Part shown: piece by piece, positions 2,208 through 9,740 of the stretch
Numbering within the stretch: position 1 is the first letter of the stretch
Layout of the letters: every line of letters starts with the position of its first letter
The notes under the pieces: model-generated
Database searches by the model: none
Seen by the model: only the letters and a program-made list of their open reading frames with translations
What the model was told of the DNA's origin: nothing
Translations under genes and position numbers: made by a program
UHGV virus genome: UHGV-1607176
DNA: 11,799 nt
Strand: one strand, 5' to 3'
Source of the DNA: a virus

Positions 2208-2707
2208 GATTGCATAGGGTCCCAAATTCGTGGAAACGTTGATTGTGCGGTTCCATAGGCTTTAAGGAAACATCCCAGCCCATCGCCATAGCAACCGTAC
2301 AAATCCGGAAGATTGTTAATCAGGCACTGGTTCTCAAGGTCCTGGAACGGCGATTTCTCGGCGGTTGCCGTGAAGGTAATTGTCCAGTTAATCCCGTCTT
2401 CGGTGGACTCGGCGATAGTGGACGTAATGGTTACCTGATAATCTTCGATGCCCATGCCGAAGTCGTGCGCCATCCAGAAACTTGACGCACCGCCGTCTAC
2501 TTTTTCGAGGAACGACAGAAACGCCTGTCGCCCCATTGCGGATGTAATCAGGGTTACGCTCACCGGGAACACGTCGTAATACGTGTCGCGCCCCTGACGT
2601 ACACCGCCACCAGCTAAATCAACGCTCCAGACGTTGTTACGTCTGGTCATCGAGTAGCCTTTCGATACAATTGGCTTAAGGCTACGTGGGAAATATAAGT
2701 CGCTCAT
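2204..2707 (-). CDS. Minor tail protein, lambda gpM-like
   Basis: 167-aa ORF immediately downstream of the tape measure gene (start overlaps the TMP stop). Segment YYDVFPVSVTLITSAMGRQAFLSFLEKVDGGASSFWMAHDF resembles the gpM core pattern SVTLS...FLE..GG..SF-W, recalled from memory. Confidence 0.55.
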   Translation of the reverse strand: MSDLYFPRSLKPIVSKGYSMTRRNNVWSVDLAGGGVRQGRDTYYDVFPVSVTLITSAMGRQAFLSFLEKVDGGASSFWMAHDFGMGIEDYQVTITSTIAESTEDGINWTITFTATAEKSPFQDLENQCLINNLPDLYGCYGDGLGCFLKAYGTAQSTFPRIWDPMQS

Positions 2708-4725
2708 TATTTGAACCCCGGCGCGTTTCTTGTGGCCTTGCGAGCCTTGCTAATCTTACTGTTGCTGTTCTGCAAAGACGCGGCAACCTGTTCTTCAATG
2801 ATGATACGCAAACGGCCCTCATCATCTTGCTCAGTGGATACGTTGCCGATTTGAGAACTCGTGTTGTTTACGATAGTAACATTAGATGGGCCACTATTTC
2901 CGCTATTATTACCGTTTAACTGCTGCCGTGTTTGACTTGCATTGGTCGCCCTGCCAGAACCCGCCATCTTGATAATCTCAGGGCCGCGTTCACCAACCAG
3001 GTAACTACCGCCAGCGTTCATTTGCCCGCCTTGCTCACGCGCGCCGCTAATCTTGGCGATGTTCGCCACCCCCGCCGCGACAGCCAGACCCGCGGCAACC
3101 GGAGCGAGTGCCGGGCCGACAATTGGAATAGCAGCAGTTGATTTATAGGCTTCGATAGCAGCCGTGTAAGTGGCAATAGTCGCTTGCGTTATGGCGAACG
3201 CTTTGTACGCAGCGGACGTCTCCCCCAGTGCGGATTTAGCATCCGCTGCCATGCTGCCGAATGCGTCGGCGGTGGCGTTGGCTTGTGCAATATTGCTCTG
3301 TTCGTTCAGGTTACGCACTGCATTAGCGTATTCTTCTTCGCTGATTAGTTTCTGTTTAAGGAAATCGTCCAGTTGCTTAAGTTTGGCGTCATTCTGCCGT
3401 TGGATTTCCTCGAACTCTGTGCCACCAAGCGCCTGTAGTTTCTCCAGATATGCATCAGCATTGTTATACAGCGCATCTCGTTGTGCCTGAAACTCCGCCA
3501 TGATGTCACTTTTCGACTTCTCGTAGTCAGCGTCGCTTACGAGTTGCTTGTCGTGGAACTCCTGCAATTTAGCCAGTTTCTGTTTCTCTTTGGCGTCTAT
3601 CCGTTCTAACTCTGTTCCGGTGTTTGTGTCTATTTGAGCTATAAACTGGTCTGCGGCTTTCTGTGCGCTTTCCTGCGCGCGAGCGTCGGCGCGGGCTTGA
3701 GCATCTGCTCGTTTCTTAGCTGCGGCAGCGATACGATTCTGCCTGTCTATTTCCTTCTGTGCCCTGTCCGCCTTATCCTTTTCATACGTCTTCTCAGATT
3801 GCTCTACCCCTTTTCGCTCGGCTGCGCGGGTCTTTTCCTCCACACCAAGGTAGTTAAGTTCATTTCGCAGTTTATTTATTTCCATCTGCGCTTCTGGCGT
3901 TTTGGCGTTTATGCCGTCCAGGTAGGCGACCAGCCCTTCTCGAGCTCCAGGAACCCCAGCTGCGATTGCTTTCTGAGCAACTTCAATACTGCGTAACTCT
4001 TTGGCGGTCAACCCCGCAGCTTCCGCAGCGGATTCGTACTGGAAAGCCACGGCCCCGGCAGCGTCCCCGCCTTGGGCTATCTGTGATGCGGCAAGGTTGG
4101 TGGTCAACTTCTGAAACAGAGATTGGGCTTTTGTTACCTTATCAATAGCTTCAACAATCTTATCTGCGGTGGAGTTAGCCTGTATGGCGGTTGCCTCTAG
4201 TGCCTTATTAAGAAATGCCATCTTCTCCGCTGTTGTTGCCCCGACAGCGTCCAGTTTTTCCAGTGCGTCATTCATGTCATACACACCGGGTGTGGCCTCA
4301 TTAAGAGCGTCATCAAGGAACTTAGTAGCTTCCTCCAGTTGTTTAGCGGTATCCGTTGAGTTACTCAAAGACGCGTACAGCGCGCCGCCGATTACGGTGG
4401 CGATAGTCAATACCGTGCCCGCAATTGGATTGAATGCGGACACTAACTGACTACCTTGTTGCGTGAAAGCCGTGAGGGCGGACTGCCCCCCTTGGATTTG
4501 TACGATAAAGTCCTGTACCTGATACCCAGCATTACCTATTGACGCCCGCATCGCGTTCATCTTCGGGGTTGCCGCGGAGGTGGTGTCCGTTAGTTTCTTT
4601 GTGCTGGAATCCGCTTTCCCAGCGGAACTACTAAGGTTATCTAACTGCTTTGCTGCTTGCTCCGCTCCAGTTGCCTGGACTCGCACCATTAAACTCGCGG
4701 TATCAGCCATTATAATCGTCCTCAT
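2707..4725 (-). CDS. Tail tape measure protein
   Basis: 672-aa ORF, the largest in the window. Ala/Gln/Lys/Glu-rich coiled-coil-like central region. C-terminal GGSYLVGERGPEII-type motif typical of tape measure proteins. Canonical position after the chaperone pair and before gpM-like. Possible alternative start at 4710 (MADTASL). Confidence 0.85.
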   Translation of the reverse strand: MRTIIMADTASLMVRVQATGAEQAAKQLDNLSSSAGKADSSTKKLTDTTSAATPKMNAMRASIGNAGYQVQDFIVQIQGGQSALTAFTQQGSQLVSAFNPIAGTVLTIATVIGGALYASLSNSTDTAKQLEEATKFLDDALNEATPGVYDMNDALEKLDAVGATTAEKMAFLNKALEATAIQANSTADKIVEAIDKVTKAQSLFQKLTTNLAASQIAQGGDAAGAVAFQYESAAEAAGLTAKELRSIEVAQKAIAAGVPGAREGLVAYLDGINAKTPEAQMEINKLRNELNYLGVEEKTRAAERKGVEQSEKTYEKDKADRAQKEIDRQNRIAAAAKKRADAQARADARAQESAQKAADQFIAQIDTNTGTELERIDAKEKQKLAKLQEFHDKQLVSDADYEKSKSDIMAEFQAQRDALYNNADAYLEKLQALGGTEFEEIQRQNDAKLKQLDDFLKQKLISEEEYANAVRNLNEQSNIAQANATADAFGSMAADAKSALGETSAAYKAFAITQATIATYTAAIEAYKSTAAIPIVGPALAPVAAGLAVAAGVANIAKISGAREQGGQMNAGGSYLVGERGPEIIKMAGSGRATNASQTRQQLNGNNSGNSGPSNVTIVNNTSSQIGNVSTEQDDEGRLRIIIEEQVAASLQNSNSKISKARKATRNAPGFK

Positions 4726-4972
4726 TACGGCCTTCGAACAGTGCGTCTAGGCCCATTATTAAGTCTACCTCAAGCAACGAGAACGGCTGTTTATGCAACT
4801 CTGCGTACGCTGTAAGGTGGTGATATTGGAGCATTTCCCTTGGTATTAGCACATTATTGCGGCTTACAAACTTCAATGCGTAGTATTTATCCATTATTTT
4901 CATCATATCGCTCGGGCATTCCGGCGGGGTTTCCTCAGGCTCCTTCGGTACAGGTAACCCCATAGCCGCCAT
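4703..4972 (-). CDS. Tail assembly chaperone, gpT-like segment (possibly made as a -1 frameshift extension of the upstream chaperone)
   Basis: 89-aa ORF between the gpG-like gene and the TMP. Its reading frame is -1 relative to the upstream gene and stays open across the 89-nt gap back into the last about 7 codons of that gene. Weak ribosome-binding site before its own ATG. Confidence 0.45.
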   Translation of the reverse strand: MAAMGLPVPKEPEETPPECPSDMMKIMDKYYALKFVSRNNVLIPREMLQYHHLTAYAELHKQPFSLLEVDLIMGLDALFEGRNEDDYNG

Positions 4973-5061
4973 AGCGGCCTTGTGCCCGTCGGCGATGGAG
5001 TCGAACTCACGTCTCCTTTGCCGTATAACCCAGCGATACCTCGCATATTCGTAAAGCGCTT

Positions 5062-5478
5062 CTACTTTACAGATAAAGCTTTGCGGCTCTCAGCATGGTG
5101 TTGAGCGACAGCCCCTCCCAACCCTTTATACTCCTTCAACAGCTTGACCAACGCTTTCTTAGTGAACTTCTCCTCGAAGGACCACCCTACAACAACAACG
5201 GCAGCAAGTGCATCGTTAAGTTTAGCCAATTCACTGTTTAATTCCGTGTTATAGCGCGCCCAGTCCCCTTTCTCGCGGCACTCCGCGTCGAGCGGTTTCA
5301 GGCGGTCAAGGATGTCGCGGTAAGCGGAGATAAAATCCTTAGCTGCGGCGATTGAGTCGTCGCAGTCAGGCCCCATCACCTGCAACCACTCCCCTGAGTC
5401 ACTGCCGTCCGGTAGCAGGATAGGCATCTTAGTTCCCGCAGCGTGGCGGGACGCGAAATAAAAATCAGAAAGTTTCAT
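5062..5478 (-). CDS. Tail assembly chaperone (gpG-like)
   Basis: 138-aa ORF immediately upstream of the T-like ORF and TMP. AAGGA ribosome-binding site 8 nt upstream of the ATG. Assignment is by position and size class only. Confidence 0.5.
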   Translation of the reverse strand: MKLSDFYFASRHAAGTKMPILLPDGSDSGEWLQVMGPDCDDSIAAAKDFISAYRDILDRLKPLDAECREKGDWARYNTELNSELAKLNDALAAVVVVGWSFEEKFTKKALVKLLKEYKGLGGAVAQHHAESRKALSVK

Positions 5479-5655: not shown

Positions 5656-5982
5656 ATGCGTAAATTAATCATAGCCATGGGTCTTATTTCTTTTTGCGCG
5701 GTAGGGTCCCAGTGTGAGCAAGTATATAGTGAAACCCCTTTAGTAACTTCCGGGGTGCTTGATTCAGCCCCTCCGTCTGCCGTTAGTGCGTTTAAAACCG
5801 CTGCTATTCGCGAATGTAATGCTGCCGTGCGCGCTGGCGGGTCTGGCCTTGGTCTTGAATTGATGACATCCCTTGTTGTTGAGTCTGTAGATGTTAACAG
5901 CCCCACTTTCAGCAGCCTACTGTTAGCCACTCGTTTGCAAATGGTTACAACCGGATGGTCAATAGGCGCAGAAAGTAAATAG
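5656..5982 (+). CDS. Small exported protein of unknown function (108 aa, N-terminal signal peptide)
   Basis: Strong ribosome-binding site (AAGGAA 6 nt before ATG). N-terminus MRKLIIAMGLISFCAVGSQC has a basic n-region, hydrophobic core and an A-V-G cleavage-type site. Not a canonical lipobox. Mature part is Ala/Ser/Val-rich with two Cys. Confidence 0.6.
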   Translation: MRKLIIAMGLISFCAVGSQCEQVYSETPLVTSGVLDSAPPSAVSAFKTAAIRECNAAVRAGGSGLGLELMTSLVVESVDVNSPTFSSLLLATRLQMVTTGWSIGAESK

Positions 5983-6047
5983 TTGCCTTTATTTAAAGGA
6001 ATGCACTGTGGTTAAATAGGACAAATCCTAAACACGAGGAAATAGGC

Positions 6048-7202
6048 ATGGCCCAGAAGAAAATAACCGACGAACAGTTACAGGAAGAATTGAACGCTGG
6101 GATGAAGAATATCGACATTGCTCGTAAATACGGCATCTCAGACCGCGTTATTCGTATCCGTAAAGCGAAACTAGCGAAGAAAGGCGTAGGCCACGGGCGT
6201 GACGTTAGCCACCTTGTGCCGGACGGCTACAAGATTAAGGGTACATCGTCTCTGGTTGATGAGTTAGGCAACACTAAACTGCAATGGGTTAAGACCGACA
6301 CCGATGCGGAACGTCAGGTCGAGTTAATGAAAGCCGTTGTGGACGAGATGAAAAAAGATTTACCCAAGTATAAGCCAGTCACTTTGGCCAAAAATGGGAC
6401 AGATGACGACTTATTAAATCTTTACACAATAACAGACCATCACATAGGGATGTTGGCGTGTCAAGAAGAAGGCGGGGATGATTACGACACCACAATCGCG
6501 GAATCTCTCGCGGTTGACTGGTTCAACAGTGCGGTTTGTATGAGTCCACAGAGTGGTGAATGTATCATTAACTTCTTAGGGGACCAAATGCACAACGACG
6601 GCATGAAGGCAATGACCCCTATGAGCGGTCATATTCTTTCAGCGGATAGTCGCCTGTTTAAAATGATACGCACGGCCATTAAGGTTATCAAGCTGGCTGT
6701 CTCACTGTGCTTGCGAAAACACAAGAAGGTTAAACTTCTTATCTGTGAAGGTAACCACGACCTTAGTTCTTCTCTGTGGCTCCGGGAGATGTTCTACGAG
6801 GTATACACAAATGAGCCTCGCGTCGAGGTTAACCGGGAGGTGTCACCGTATTATGCGTACAAGTTCGGGGATTGTATGATTTCAGCACATCACGGGCATT
6901 GTTCTAACTTTGCTAAGGTAGAGCAGGCTATAATCGGTAAGTACCGGGAGATGTACGGGCGGTGTAAGTTCACATATGTCCATACGGGGCACCTCCATCA
7001 CAGGGCGGTTAAAGAGACTAATCTGCTAATTGTTGAGCAACACCAGACATTAGCGGCTAAAGATGAGTATTCTAGTAAGGGCGGCTATTATTCAGGTAGA
7101 AGCGCAAATGTGATTACATACCACAAACGTTACGGGGAGGTGTCCCGCATAAGTATACCTGTCGAAATGCTGCGAGACATAAACCCAAAATCGACATACT
7201 AA
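6048..7202 (+). CDS. HTH domain fused to a calcineurin-like metallophosphoesterase (predicted phosphodiesterase/nuclease)
   Basis: 384-aa ORF with GAGGAA ribosome-binding site. N-terminal about 45 aa is helix-turn-helix-like (NIDIARKYGISDRVIRIRKAKL). It carries the full ordered metallophosphoesterase motif set: DHH (6435-6443), GDQMHNDG (6579-6602), GNHD (6750-6761), HHGH (6888-6899), GHLHH (6987-7001). Confidence 0.8.
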   Translation: MAQKKITDEQLQEELNAGMKNIDIARKYGISDRVIRIRKAKLAKKGVGHGRDVSHLVPDGYKIKGTSSLVDELGNTKLQWVKTDTDAERQVELMKAVVDEMKKDLPKYKPVTLAKNGTDDDLLNLYTITDHHIGMLACQEEGGDDYDTTIAESLAVDWFNSAVCMSPQSGECIINFLGDQMHNDGMKAMTPMSGHILSADSRLFKMIRTAIKVIKLAVSLCLRKHKKVKLLICEGNHDLSSSLWLREMFYEVYTNEPRVEVNREVSPYYAYKFGDCMISAHHGHCSNFAKVEQAIIGKYREMYGRCKFTYVHTGHLHHRAVKETNLLIVEQHQTLAAKDEYSSKGGYYSGRSANVITYHKRYGEVSRISIPVEMLRDINPKSTY

Positions 7203-7217
7203 AATATAGGTGAAAGT

Positions 7218-7718
7218 ATGGATTGGAGTGAGGTTTTTAGCTACAAAAATGGCGTCCTATACTGGAAAGTCAAATCATGTCGCCGTAACGATGTGAATAT
7301 AGGTGATGTGGCCGGGAGTTTGTGTAAAAACGGCTATTGGTATGTCATGTTTGGTAACCGTAAGTTTAAAAGGTCGAGGGTGGTGTATGAGATGTTCTCA
7401 GGTAAGATTCCAAAAGGATTTGTCATAGACCATACTAACCATGATACCTGTGACGACAGAATTGAAAACCTGTCATGCAAATCTAGAAGGGACAACATGG
7501 TTAACGTGAAAAGGCGCAAAGATAATACCTCTGGAGTTACGGGTGTGGCGCGGAAAGGAAAAACTAAGTGGAGAGCTTATGCCGTTGTCAACGGTAAGCA
7601 GATTAGTAAAACATTTGACAGAATAGAGGACGCTTTCGCTGAAAGAATTTACATGTCTGTGGCTAATAGGTTTCACATAAATCATGGACTGACAACATTC
7701 AACAACGGTTATAAATAG
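7218..7718 (+). CDS. HNH homing endonuclease with C-terminal AP2 DNA-binding domain
   Basis: 166-aa ORF with AGGTGA ribosome-binding site. HNH motif GFVIDHTNHDTCDDRIENL (about 7425-7472). AP2-like segment SGVTGVARKGKTKWRAYAVVNGKQISKTFDRIEDAFAERIY (about 7530-7655). Confidence 0.85.
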   Translation: MDWSEVFSYKNGVLYWKVKSCRRNDVNIGDVAGSLCKNGYWYVMFGNRKFKRSRVVYEMFSGKIPKGFVIDHTNHDTCDDRIENLSCKSRRDNMVNVKRRKDNTSGVTGVARKGKTKWRAYAVVNGKQISKTFDRIEDAFAERIYMSVANRFHINHGLTTFNNGYK

Positions 7719-7727
7719 GGTGTAGAG

Positions 7728-7958
7728 ATGACTTCAAAATACAACCGCACAATGACAAACACTCACGGCAGCACCATGACAGTAGACGTTTATGATGTGC
7801 TCCGTGCTTTCGATATCCGTGACCCGGCGCTACAGCATGCGTTAAAGAAGTTATTGTGCATGGGCTTGCGCGGACACAAGGACACCGGAACCGACTTAGC
7901 AGAAGCAATTGAAAGTCTGGAGAAGTTACGGGAATACCGAAGCAATATTGATGAGTGA
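7728..7958 (+). CDS. Small phage protein, DUF3310-like (function unknown)
   Basis: 76-aa ORF with ATG start. Pattern VYDVLRAF...ALQHALKKLLCMGLRGHKDTGTDLAEAIESLEKL resembles the DUF3310 signature (AIKYL-RAG-KG...DL-KA-YL) as I recall it. Not verified by search. Confidence 0.5.
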   Translation: MTSKYNRTMTNTHGSTMTVDVYDVLRAFDIRDPALQHALKKLLCMGLRGHKDTGTDLAEAIESLEKLREYRSNIDE

Positions 7959-7965
7959 AAATATT

Positions 7966-8127
7966 ATGAAAACAATATATGTAATCCGAGTATACGACGA
8001 AGAATGGGACGAGTGGGTTGATATTTATGCCGTTAGTAGTAAGGAAGAGGCCTCTAAAGAAATGACAGAACGAAGGGACCGAGGCCAGTTAACTAACTTC
8101 TACGAAATGCCGTTCAAAAGTGAGTAA
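7966..8127 (+). CDS. Small acidic hypothetical protein (about 53 aa)
   Basis: The track ORF 7909..8127 starts at a TTG and overlaps the previous gene. In-frame ATGs lie at 7951 and 7966, and 7966 is chosen because it follows the upstream stop. Sequence MKTIYVIRVYDEEWDEWVDIYAVSSKEEASKEM... is acidic. Followed directly by the terminator. Confidence 0.4.
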   Translation: MKTIYVIRVYDEEWDEWVDIYAVSSKEEASKEMTERRDRGQLTNFYEMPFKSE

Positions 8128-8130
8128 GAA

Positions 8131-8157
8131 AAGGCCCCTTTCGGGGCCTTAGTTTTA
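8131..8157. terminator. Bidirectional rho-independent terminator between the convergent island and major tail gene
   Basis: Perfect 8-bp stem AAGGCCCC (8131-8138) / GGGGCCTT (8143-8150) with 4-nt loop TTTC. Followed by a T-run on the plus strand (8153-8156) and a TTCTT stretch on the minus strand. Lies in the 27-nt gap between the plus-strand stop (8125-8127) and the minus-strand stop (8155-8157). Confidence 0.75.
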
Positions 8158-9321
8158 TGCGTAACTAATACGTTGAATTACGATAGACGACTGATACTGG
8201 TTGCCTGTGGACTGCCCTTCTATACTTTGGGTAATTGACTCAGGCCCACCAATCTCAGGTGTAACCGCCGTGAGTTCTGCGCGTTTCAAACTAAAAGACA
8301 TAGCCCCGTTTACCCCCGCCAGAATAGAGTTAATCTCCACCTGCTGTTCGTTGATAAACTTCTGAATCATAGCCATGTCGTACAGCTTGCCGGAGATGGA
8401 GAAGGTGTTAGCCGCGCGGCTACGTTCCACAAACGCTACGTTAGTGTTGCCGAGTTCGAACTGCGCCGACGCGCTGTTGTCGTTGGTGATGGTCAGGCTG
8501 TCGCAACGCAACGGCGTAGAACCGTCGAACACAGAAACATCGACCGAGGAGAATGGCTCGTCACCAAACGTAACAGAGGAGAAATCAGAACCAGACGGCT
8601 GCGTGGTGAGAATCTCCTGACTGCGACCGATGAACGGGAAGCTGCCAGTTACCATCGCGTTAACAGCCTGTTCGATGGTAAAACCAGAAACTTCCACGCC
8701 TTTGGTTAACGTGTACGCGTCAGTACCGCCGCACTGGCCTTTGTACCAGGTAAGGATAGAGAACGTCTTACACGCGTTACCGGTTTCCAACGTGTCGCCA
8801 GTTTTAGCCTTACTAGTTTTTGTCTCGGTGGTCAGGGTGTGTTGGATGCCCGCACCAGTAACAACCGTAGCCGTTACTGCAGTAACAATAAATGGTTTTG
8901 CGTTATCGCCTGTTAAATCGGTAAACGCAATCAGGTCGCCTACCCCAACTCCGTCAGTGATAAAACTGCCGGTAGCGCGTGTGAACGTCTTGCCCGCGGG
9001 TGCGACGGTAATCGATAGTCCTGACCGGGAAACGCCGGATTGCCACGTAGAGCCTAAAGCCCCGGCTAACCAGTCGTCCTGACTTTTAGAGCTAAGCTCA
9101 ATAGCGTATTCTCCGCTAACCTGCTTGTTACCGGTGCGGATGGATGTGGTTTCTCGGCTGCCGTCAAGTTCGTTGGAGGTCAGCGTGTCGCGGGTAATGG
9201 CAGGAACGCCGCCCGTGTTGCGCAACGGCGACCATACCGGGTTAGCCGGTGTTACGCCCGGGGTAGTTTCTGCCACATAGAATTGCGCAGTATTCGCGCC
9301 CTTAAAAGGAGTTGTAGCCAT
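8155..9321 (-). CDS. Putative major tail (tube) protein
   Basis: 388-390-aa ORF. The track start at 9327 is a GTG overlapping the upstream stop, and the first ATG is 9321..9319 with AAGAGG upstream. It is the last large gene of the neck module before the chaperone/TMP genes and is followed by a strong terminator. Thr/Gly/Ser-rich. Assignment is by synteny; a capsid-related role is not excluded. Confidence 0.5.
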   Translation of the reverse strand: MATTPFKGANTAQFYVAETTPGVTPANPVWSPLRNTGGVPAITRDTLTSNELDGSRETTSIRTGNKQVSGEYAIELSSKSQDDWLAGALGSTWQSGVSRSGLSITVAPAGKTFTRATGSFITDGVGVGDLIAFTDLTGDNAKPFIVTAVTATVVTGAGIQHTLTTETKTSKAKTGDTLETGNACKTFSILTWYKGQCGGTDAYTLTKGVEVSGFTIEQAVNAMVTGSFPFIGRSQEILTTQPSGSDFSSVTFGDEPFSSVDVSVFDGSTPLRCDSLTITNDNSASAQFELGNTNVAFVERSRAANTFSISGKLYDMAMIQKFINEQQVEINSILAGVNGAMSFSLKRAELTAVTPEIGGPESITQSIEGQSTGNQYQSSIVIQRISYA

Positions 9322-9323
9322 AT

Positions 9324-9740
9324 TCACAGCCTCTTGGTGAATGCAATAAAGTTAATTGACAATGGTCGTTTGGCCCATCCGTTTTCTACAATCAGCGGCC
9401 CCAGGCTAACCGATTGAACCTCGGCGCAGATGTCGTTACGTGAAAATGACTTACCTGCTTTAAACGCCGTGTTAAGTAAGTCTGCCATTTTATTGATTGG
9501 CGCGCTACCTTTCACCGATGCGTAGTTAATATCTACCTGATAGACGCCAGCGCGTTGTTCCGTGAAGAACAAATCCGCCTGTTCCGTATCCGCCAGCAAC
9601 ATGTAACTTGCCAGATATGGTGTATCGGTTGACGTCGGTGCGCCGATATTTTCAAGCGCGACTTTGATGCCGTTGGCGGTTCCGAAGGCTACCAGCGGCA
9701 CATCAAACGCTTTTGTTAAGTCCTCAAAGTAGCCCATCAT
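9324..9740 (-). CDS. Neck / tail completion protein (tail terminator-like by position)
   Basis: 138-aa ORF with ATG start, translationally coupled to both neighbours by ATGA overlaps. Lies immediately upstream of the putative major tail gene. Confidence 0.4.
   Translation of the reverse strand: MMGYFEDLTKAFDVPLVAFGTANGIKVALENIGAPTSTDTPYLASYMLLADTEQADLFFTEQRAGVYQVDINYASVKGSAPINKMADLLNTAFKAGKSFSRNDICAEVQSVSLGPLIVENGWAKRPLSINFIAFTKRL

Follow-up and report, generated by a model that had tools for sequence, protein, structure and literature searches.

The window analysed here is the whole of an 11,799-nucleotide stretch of the virus genome UHGV-1607176, and our subject is an intact open reading frame (ORF) on its + strand at 7218..7718, which we call HNH-A. 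It runs from an ATG at 7218 to a TAG at 7716-7718 and encodes 166 amino acids, arranged as an N-terminal beta-hairpin region, an HNN-type His-Me finger and a C-terminal AP2-like domain. Upstream of it lies exo (6048..7202, + strand), which encodes a 384-residue metallophosphoesterase-type 'DNA repair exonuclease' (phrog_704, 6.9e-150), and downstream lies ORF76 (7728..7958, + strand; phrog_2452, 2.4e-36), a small conserved gene bordering the insertion site on its right. The spacer from the exo stop to the HNH-A start (7203..7217, + strand) is 15 nucleotides (nt) long, contains an AGGTGA ribosome-binding site at 7208-7213 and is conserved in the phages Ent1, SETP3 and SE2, while 9 nt separate the HNH-A stop from the ORF76 start. 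HNH-A thus has its own ribosome-binding site and start codon between exo and ORF76, and since an Rfam scan of the window matched no family, and so found no group I intron, we regard the gene as free-standing. An earlier reading made from the sequence only had proposed a free-standing HNH gene with exactly these limits, and our analysis agrees. In a megablast search the window matches E. coli Kagunavirus phages best (85-95% identity over 56-68% of its length for XY1, JSSK01, K1G and others), and no database record spans 80% of it. We take its source to be a Kagunavirus-like E. coli siphophage of the Guernseyvirinae.

The sequence-only reading had called both the HNH motif and the AP2 domain clear, and for the first of these the description holds. 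Pfam HNH_3 (PF13392) matches HNH-A over residues 53-95 at 58.2 bits against a cut-off of 24.8 (E = 6.1e-16), and PHROG phrog_99, 'HNH endonuclease', matches at 1.4e-49. The nuclease core, defined by the extent of the HNH_3 match (7374..7502, + strand), includes the pair D71-H72 together with N84 and N93/N96; an alignment of 31 homologues shows no variation at D71, N84, L85 and N96 and at least 90% conservation at H72 and N93. I-HmuI has this same Cys-less 'HNN' pattern, and it (PDB 1U3E) is recovered both by a family-profile search (1.8e-9) and as the top-ranked Foldseek match to a model of HNH-A; a phmmer search of HNH-A against the PDB returned only noise. The model is an alignment-based AlphaFold prediction with a predicted local distance difference test score (pLDDT) of 83.7, used in place of a single-sequence model that was unusable (pLDDT 39), and within the core it has strands at 68-72 and 85-89 and a helix at 90-94. 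HNH-A is therefore described here as a predicted His-Me finger endonuclease of the HNH_3 (I-HmuI-like, 'HNN') kind.

I-HmuI of phage SPO1 is at once the best sequence-profile match and the best fold match to HNH-A, and the likeness extends to the 'HNN' His-Me finger, the D-H general-base pair, the Asn ligands, the lack of Cys4 zinc sites, the N-terminal beta-hairpin region and the size (174 against 166 amino acids). The two proteins nevertheless share just 18% identity (Foldseek), and I-HmuI is encoded in a group I intron of a DNA polymerase gene whereas HNH-A is free-standing. They also end differently, I-HmuI in a helix-turn-helix-type DNA-binding domain and HNH-A in the AP2-like one.

The AP2 domain is much less obvious than the sequence-only reading had suggested. 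Pfam AP2 (PF00847) matches neither the HNH-A protein nor its C-terminal 63 residues, even at E<=10. The predicted AP2-like DNA-binding domain (7530..7667, + strand; about residues 105-150) consists of three strands and a helix, placed by the AlphaFold model at 110-113, 117-124, 127-133 and 136-149, with pLDDT of 73-94 over the block. The full-length homologues P0012-14, P0017, P0020 and P0023 carry precomputed PF00847 matches, giving them the combined architecture of PF00847 and PF13392, and the family profile reaches the AP2 domains of the plant proteins WRI1 (6e-4) and TEM1 (1.8e-3). Comparison by hhalign with a hand-entered sequence of the AtERF1 AP2 domain gives E = 7.5e-5 at 62% probability, and Foldseek finds TEM1 AP2 chains at a probability of 0.91-0.99, with E-values of just 0.1-0.4. 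The domain is thus detectable by profile and structure comparison only, and not by a Pfam scan of the sequence.

HNH-A is in these respects an ordinary, already-annotated member of the known class of HNN-AP2 free-standing phage endonucleases, whose domain architecture and lifestyle it shares. Free-standing HNN-AP2 or HNH-AP2 endonucleases have reportedly been named in Xanthomonas phages, in the T4-related phages RB16, RB43 and RB49, and in T1 and T5, and work by Magnani et al. in 2004 is said to bear on them. In the Xanthomonas phages Xp10, OP1 and Xop411 the HNN + AP2 genes are free-standing, sporadic and degenerate after spreading (PMC2248197), and HNH-AP2 homing endonuclease genes have been tabulated for T4-related phages (PMC2993671). 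The Xanthomonas genes appear scattered without conserved flanks (PMC2248197), whereas the HNH-A lineage occupies a fixed site after exo across two phage families and has a defined flanking cassette. What is new lies at the population level, in the structure of this cassette, its transfer across genera, the scars that HNH-A leaves and a competing endonuclease at the same junction. In the literature on Jerseyvirus and Guernseyvirinae genomes we found homing endonucleases treated at the level of annotation only, and no analysis of the junction between exo and ORF76.

A tblastn search finds HNH-A at 95% or more amino-acid identity (95-99%) in 117 phage records, nearly all of them Salmonella Jerseyvirus, and the complete gene in 115, where these and all later counts are of database records and include RefSeq/GenBank duplicates and many near-identical isolates. 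Carriers include Ent1, wksl3, Jersey and the Kenya-K series, and the labels given to the gene are 'HNH endonuclease', 'HNH homing endonuclease', 'putative endonuclease' and 'hypothetical protein'. Between E. coli and Salmonella phages the protein is ~98-99% identical, whereas their tail genes are ~70% identical. At the DNA level HNH-A is 97% identical to Ent1, against ~70% for tail genes, and the wider segment 6171-7961 of the window is 92% identical to Ent1, against 70%. Some close relatives have the gene and others lack it, and it is nearly constant across backbones that are not, which supports the suggestion that it is a selfish mobile gene. Nor is it a fixed, non-mobile component of all relatives, being absent or a remnant in many.

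A sliding identity comparison over ten exo genes indicates how it moved. The exo alleles fall into two deeply diverged types, type I and type II. Over its first ~200 nt the window exo is Kagunavirus-like, mostly 92-100% identical to Bas71 and TH07; nt ~200-300 form a transition zone in which both allele types are similar; beyond it the gene is type I, 92-97% identical to Ent1, SETP3 and SP101 of Jerseyvirus but with just 45-60% identity to the type II exo of K1G, TH07, Bas71 and JSSK01. The window exo is a mosaic, with a 5' part of ~190-290 nt of Kagunavirus type and a remainder of type I, that is of Jerseyvirus type. Judged by informative sites, the switch point differs across three Kagunavirus backbones, falling at exo nt 183-192 in the window (with a patch up to nt 291), at 192-231 in XY1 and at 264-291 in BUCT823. 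On the other side, ORF76 is back to Kagunavirus type from its start codon (92.8% identical to Bas71, 82.9% to Ent1). The tract that the window has in common with Jerseyvirus, which we regard as an imported cassette, lies at 6338..7727 (+ strand; the left edge is fuzzy, 6231-6338), comprises the type I exo 3' part, HNH-A and the 9-nt spacer, and measures ~1.4 kilobases (kb).

The same two boundaries appear within Jerseyvirus. Ent1 has a type I exo with HNH-A and SE129_1TP2 a type II exo with HNH-B, a second HNH-AP2 gene to which we return below; the two phages share 96% identity up to exo nt ~305 and 88% from the ORF76 ATG onward, and cannot be aligned over the cassette in between. Measured against Ent1, synonymous divergence (dS) is lowest in HNH-A (0.12), higher in the exo 3' part (0.27) and highest in ORF76 (1.0), with a ratio of nonsynonymous to synonymous divergence (dN/dS) of 0.03-0.07 throughout. 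For HNH-A dN/dS is 0.064 against Ent1 and 0.034 against BUCT823, these dN/dS and dS figures being pairwise values on a 501-nt gene with 7-11 synonymous differences, and the gene is on this evidence under purifying selection and 'still functional'.

The mobile unit is then, most plausibly, the ~1.4-kb cassette of the exo 3' three-quarters plus HNH-A, and not the gene alone. The sequence-only reading had expected such a gene to promote the spread of its neighbours, and it was right in that the exo 3' three-quarters travels with HNH-A. A query made of the last 118 nt of type I exo and the first 36 nt of HNH-A matches 160 records, 157 of which cover it almost fully, and remnants of HNH-A account for the gap between this number and the 115 complete copies. 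A search with the C-terminal 270 residues of type I exo gives 164 records with at least 95% identity. Transfer likely ran from the Jerseyvirus pool into the Kagunavirus backbone, because 154 of the 160 type I exo-end records are from Salmonella phages and 4 from Escherichia phages. The HNH-A cassette would account for the window exo being a chimera of E. coli-phage and Salmonella-phage sequence.

Nearly every type I exo allele has HNH-A or a remnant of it downstream. We found at least three independent microhomology-mediated deletions or truncations, the SETP3-type, that of FSL SP-101 and that of XY1, each at a microhomology of 6-9 nt. The SETP3-type scar, defined by a three-way junction alignment, is an in-frame 456-nt deletion of the segment corresponding to 7254..7709 (+ strand), with AAYGGY microhomologies at 7248-7253 and 7704-7709; in SETP3 itself the deletion lies between two AACGGC copies and leaves a mini-ORF that reads MDWSEVFSYKNG followed by YK and a stop. 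It is found in SETP3 and ~40 other Jerseyvirus records, an approximate number drawn from combined searches, since HNH-positive genomes match the right half of the scar-junction query. In FSL SP-101 the junction alignment shows the segment 7217..7645 (+ strand) to be absent, between TGAAAG microhomologies at 7211-7216 and 7640-7645; the start codon and first 428 nt of HNH-A are lost and the last 73 nt kept, an arrangement unique to this phage. In XY1, and there alone, the first 180 nt of HNH-A are kept and fused in frame to a type II exo, the truncation point (7388..7397, + strand) joining HNH-A nt 180 to nt 738 of that exo through the 9-nt microhomology TGAGATGTT. Downstream of the type II exo 3' end XY1, like K1G, has polynucleotide-kinase and kinase-like genes.

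The N-terminal codons kept in such remnants have homologous counterparts at the N-termini of distant family members whose contexts are unrelated, and the HNH-less type I alleles are therefore deletions and not pre-insertion sites. This limits the advice, given with the sequence-only reading, to find the insertion site by comparison with relatives that lack the gene: the closest HNH-less alleles, those of type I, are deletion remnants, and the comparison works only with type II exo alleles. HNH-A is evidently dispensable, and it appears to have become fixed in the type I lineage and to be in the course of being lost there, which fits the decay phase that the HNN-AP2 genes of Xanthomonas phages are described as undergoing (PMC2248197).

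Two further records deserve comment. SE2 was considered as another independent loss of HNH-A and rejected, since its scar is of the SETP3 type and holds an inserted 1.18-kb DNA-methylase cassette (L015 1641-2812); the scar has itself turned into an insertion site, and the methylase gene is split by a frameshift in that record. In SE40 (L016 1590-1640) the type I exo stop is joined to the middle of ORF76, with HNH-A and the 5' half of ORF76 gone, in a record of just 28.9 kb that may be an assembly artefact.

The viable deletion alleles also bear on what HNH-A could be for. Some phage HNH proteins are associated with packaging, as with HK97 gp74, and HNH-A might by analogy assist the terminase in cutting concatemers, although all that the two have in common is the His-Me finger superfamily. 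HNH-A lies in an island within the tail module and not by terminase or portal genes, is of the I-HmuI-like HNN + AP2 type, and is dispensable in many relatives. We rejected a packaging role on gene context and dispensability, and with the deletion alleles in view it is effectively refuted.

A functional partnership with exo deserves more attention. Here HNH-A would be kept for its benefit to the phage and not as a selfish gene, for example in nick-and-resect processing of phage or host DNA. The linkage is indeed persistent. Three homologues outside the Guernseyvirinae (P0003, P0004 and P0006; 61-63% identical to HNH-A), on contigs of ~39-47 kb that carry a T1-type holin, each lie directly downstream of an exo orthologue 40-69% identical to the window exo. 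Genes of the HNH-A clade thus stand immediately downstream of exo in both Guernseyvirinae and T1-like contigs, HNH-B also adjoins exo, and the purifying selection on HNH-A is strong. Yet exo homologues are encoded in ~1,960 phage records, of which only ~115 have HNH-A and 39 HNH-B (~150 have either), some 40 isolated and viable phages carry an in-frame deletion of nearly the whole of HNH-A, and in HNH-less type II alleles the exo stop overlaps the ORF76 start. Since so few exo-encoding records have either HNH gene, and since viable deletion alleles exist, we consider a cooperative role very unlikely. As a separate observation, in the T1-like contigs an intergenic motif, ATAGCACYTTTTG and after it a hairpin, is repeated on both sides of the HNH homologue (L013 3926-4000 and 4484-4557; likewise in L012 and L014), which suggests a regulatory element duplicated at insertion.

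The junction between exo and ORF76 has other occupants. Type II exo alleles come in three forms: one in which the exo stop overlaps the ORF76 start (AG11, Bas71, JSSK01), one in which exo is followed by polynucleotide-kinase and kinase-like genes (K1G, TH07), and one in which HNH-B is inserted precisely between the exo stop and ORF76. HNH-B (2986-3456 of L010, Salmonella phage SE129_1TP2; also in L018-L022) encodes 156 amino acids, is 33% identical to HNH-A, matches Pfam HNH_3 at 5e-10 and AP2 at 1e-3, and occurs at 95-100% identity in 39 records from both Salmonella and E. coli phages. Between five Kagunavirus carriers and a Jerseyvirus carrier there is near-identity (mostly 93-100%) from exo nt ~841 through HNH-B to the ORF76 ATG, while HNH-less type II alleles, whichever the genus, match the HNH-B-linked exo nt 841-1131 at just 62-80% identity. 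Both the HNH-A and the HNH-B cassette cross the genus boundary between Salmonella and E. coli phages, and each endonuclease gene therefore travels with a diverged copy of the exo 3' end. Such a pattern would be expected if the target lay in that region and the linked copy were resistant.

Taking these results together, we propose, with a probability of roughly 70%, that HNH-A is an intact free-standing homing-type endonuclease ('HNN' plus AP2-like) that spread by intronless homing as an exo 3'/HNH cassette and is now decaying. How would this work? In a mixed infection HNH-A would nick or cut the exo region of an HNH-less type II allele in a co-infecting relative, and recombinational repair would copy the donor. 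Because divergence would keep the two exo alleles from pairing over the 3' three-quarters of the gene, the conversion tract would have to run from the first homology, at exo nt ~180-300, through HNH-A to the ORF76 start, so that the moving unit becomes the ~1.4-kb cassette. The Kagunavirus-type genome of the window would have taken its cassette from the Salmonella Jerseyvirus pool. Where it is fixed, HNH-A, being dispensable, would be lost by microhomology-mediated deletions, completing the usual rise-and-decay cycle of homing endonucleases. Homing-type spread is well supported by comparison of the genomes, whereas cleavage activity, a target site and spread driven by cleavage rather than by ordinary recombination are what we infer from it. 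A target in exo nt ~740-1131 would be compatible with two observations: XY1 keeps the type II exo 3' end only beside a truncated HNH-A, and this region is replaced in both the HNH-A and the HNH-B cassettes.

There is a precedent for such a mechanism. Intronless homing with co-conversion is established for SegF, SegG and MobE of T4, which are free-standing between conserved genes and cut the endonuclease-lacking allele, with flanking markers co-converted, sometimes from a distant cleavage site (as cited in PMC2993671). The pattern of the HNH-A cassette resembles these co-conversion tracts. The Seg proteins, however, are GIY-YIG enzymes, and cleavage and marker exclusion are experimental there, whereas we deduce them for HNH-A.

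Could the distribution of HNH-A arise with no homing at all, the gene being a passive passenger of ordinary homologous recombination among mosaic Guernseyvirinae? The breakpoints lie exactly where the two allele types regain homology, at exo nt ~180-300 and at the ORF76 start, and the subfamily is mosaic throughout, one example being the window's tape-measure and chaperone region, for which the fetched relatives give no blastn match. A mere passenger would not, however, lead us to expect conserved catalytic residues and dN/dS of 0.03-0.06, which indicate a protein under selection though dispensable, nor a synonymous divergence that is lowest at HNH-A itself. Moreover, the HNH-B exo alleles are alignable over their full length, yet the near-identical tract shared across genera has the endonuclease gene at its centre and stops at the downstream edge of that gene. 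We consider simple passenger status unlikely.

Several points nonetheless weigh against the homing proposal. The ends of the cassette tract coincide with the limits of sequence homology and are explained equally well by plain recombination. Every HNH-less type I allele that we found is a deletion derivative; there is no naive empty site for type I exo, and HNH-A is therefore never caught as a simple insertion, leaving type II alleles as its presumed recipients. The persistent linkage of HNH to exo across two phage families could mean cooperation and not a preference for a target site. To these must be added the redundancy of the database counts and the small number of synonymous differences behind the substitution rates, both given above.

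A more speculative extension of the homing proposal concerns both endonucleases. The junction may hold two mutually exclusive cassettes, HNH-A with type I exo and HNH-B with its own exo 3' end, each enzyme cutting exo nt ~740-1131 of alleles without its own cassette, and the extreme divergence of the exo 3' ends would then be an 'immunity' sequence kept by conflict. We hold this only tentatively and think it rather doubtful. Goodrich-Blair and Shub reportedly described, in 1996, a competition between I-HmuI and I-HmuII of the phages SPO1 and SP82, in which either enzyme could exclude the flanking markers of the other. The likeness is that two related HNH endonucleases belong to one locus, HNH-A/type I exo and HNH-B/type II exo being alternative occupants of one junction; it is limited in that mutual cutting of alleles by HNH-A and HNH-B is a candidate only. 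If true, the junction would be a natural reciprocal marker-exclusion system like that of I-HmuI/I-HmuII, readable from several hundred genomes.

We now turn to the surroundings of the locus. The minus strand of the window is a siphophage tail module, with a tape-measure gene (2707-4725, - strand), two tail-assembly-chaperone ORFs (4703-4972 and 5062-5478, - strand; Pfam Phage_TAC_18 and Phage_TAC_4), a tail-tube gene (8155-9327, - strand; Phage_tube_2, 7e-37) and, beyond it, neck and connector genes. Between the chaperone and tail-tube genes lies a plus-strand island, 5656-8127, of lower G+C (0.41-0.47 vs ~0.52), containing in order a 108-residue ORF (5656-5982, + strand; phrog_14165), exo, HNH-A, ORF76 and a short ORF of ~58 amino acids. 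A bidirectional terminator hairpin found by a terminator scan (8131..8150, both strands) separates the island from the minus-strand tail-tube gene, and relatives have this same hairpin after ORF76. The sequence-only reading correctly placed HNH-A inside this island, but its proposal that HNH-A explains how the island was acquired or is maintained fails: this reverse-strand island between the chaperone and tail-tube genes is present in every Guernseyvirinae genome examined, with or without an HNH gene, K1G, TH07, AG11, Bas71 and JSSK01 being examples in which the locus has none.

Other features of the island and tail module are recorded here as separate observations. The 108-residue ORF heading the island has a hydrophobic, signal-peptide-like N-terminus and replaces the 59-63-residue 'superinfection immunity' gene of XY1, K1G and Ent1; AG11, Bas71 and NTEC3 have an ORF of similar size (108-109 amino acids) in its position. 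ORF76 covers only the C-terminal ~70 positions of longer families (150-220 of 235 in phrog_2452; 172-237 of 246 in phrog_17613, 'ATPase'), and the C-terminal-only phrog_2452 match raised the suspicion that it is the remnant of a kinase gene left by HNH insertion. This was rejected because a complete 76-residue gene is present in relatives with and without HNH, and because its translation, on reading, is unlike the kinase-like protein of XY1 and K1G.

In the tail module, window 3227-5454, comprising most of the tape-measure gene and both chaperone ORFs, has no blastn similarity to any fetched relative and is presumably a divergent module that was exchanged separately; the tape-measure protein has 672 amino acids in the window and 757-779 in relatives. 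In XY1 (L001 4147-4797) and TH07 (L008 2740-3390) the tape-measure gene and the tail gene downstream of it are separated by a 216-residue + strand ORF that is labelled an HNH endonuclease (phrog_953) and has a Pfam AP2 match at 2e-4 and no HNH_3 match; window 2704-2707 is the uninterrupted form of that site, with stop and start overlapping. Opposite window 2208-2260, XY1 also has ~957 additional nt (L001 2708-3664) in the homologue of the window gene at 2204-2707, which there encodes 466 instead of 167 amino acids, a candidate intein or insertion in which no Pfam domain was found.

In general, HNH-A is an ordinary selfish element, and it matters mainly for annotation and for understanding mosaicism. 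The population-level findings are of interest to specialists in homing endonucleases and phage mosaicism, and they are not surprising. The allelic series assembled here, with an intact gene, three kinds of microhomology deletion, a methylase cassette in a scar and a rival endonuclease, might be used as a natural model of the life cycle of a free-standing homing endonuclease gene, and it also provides concrete substrates for target-site mapping. The HNH-A locus also marks a hot spot of recombination in a subfamily whose phages are widely isolated for the biocontrol of Salmonella and E. coli.

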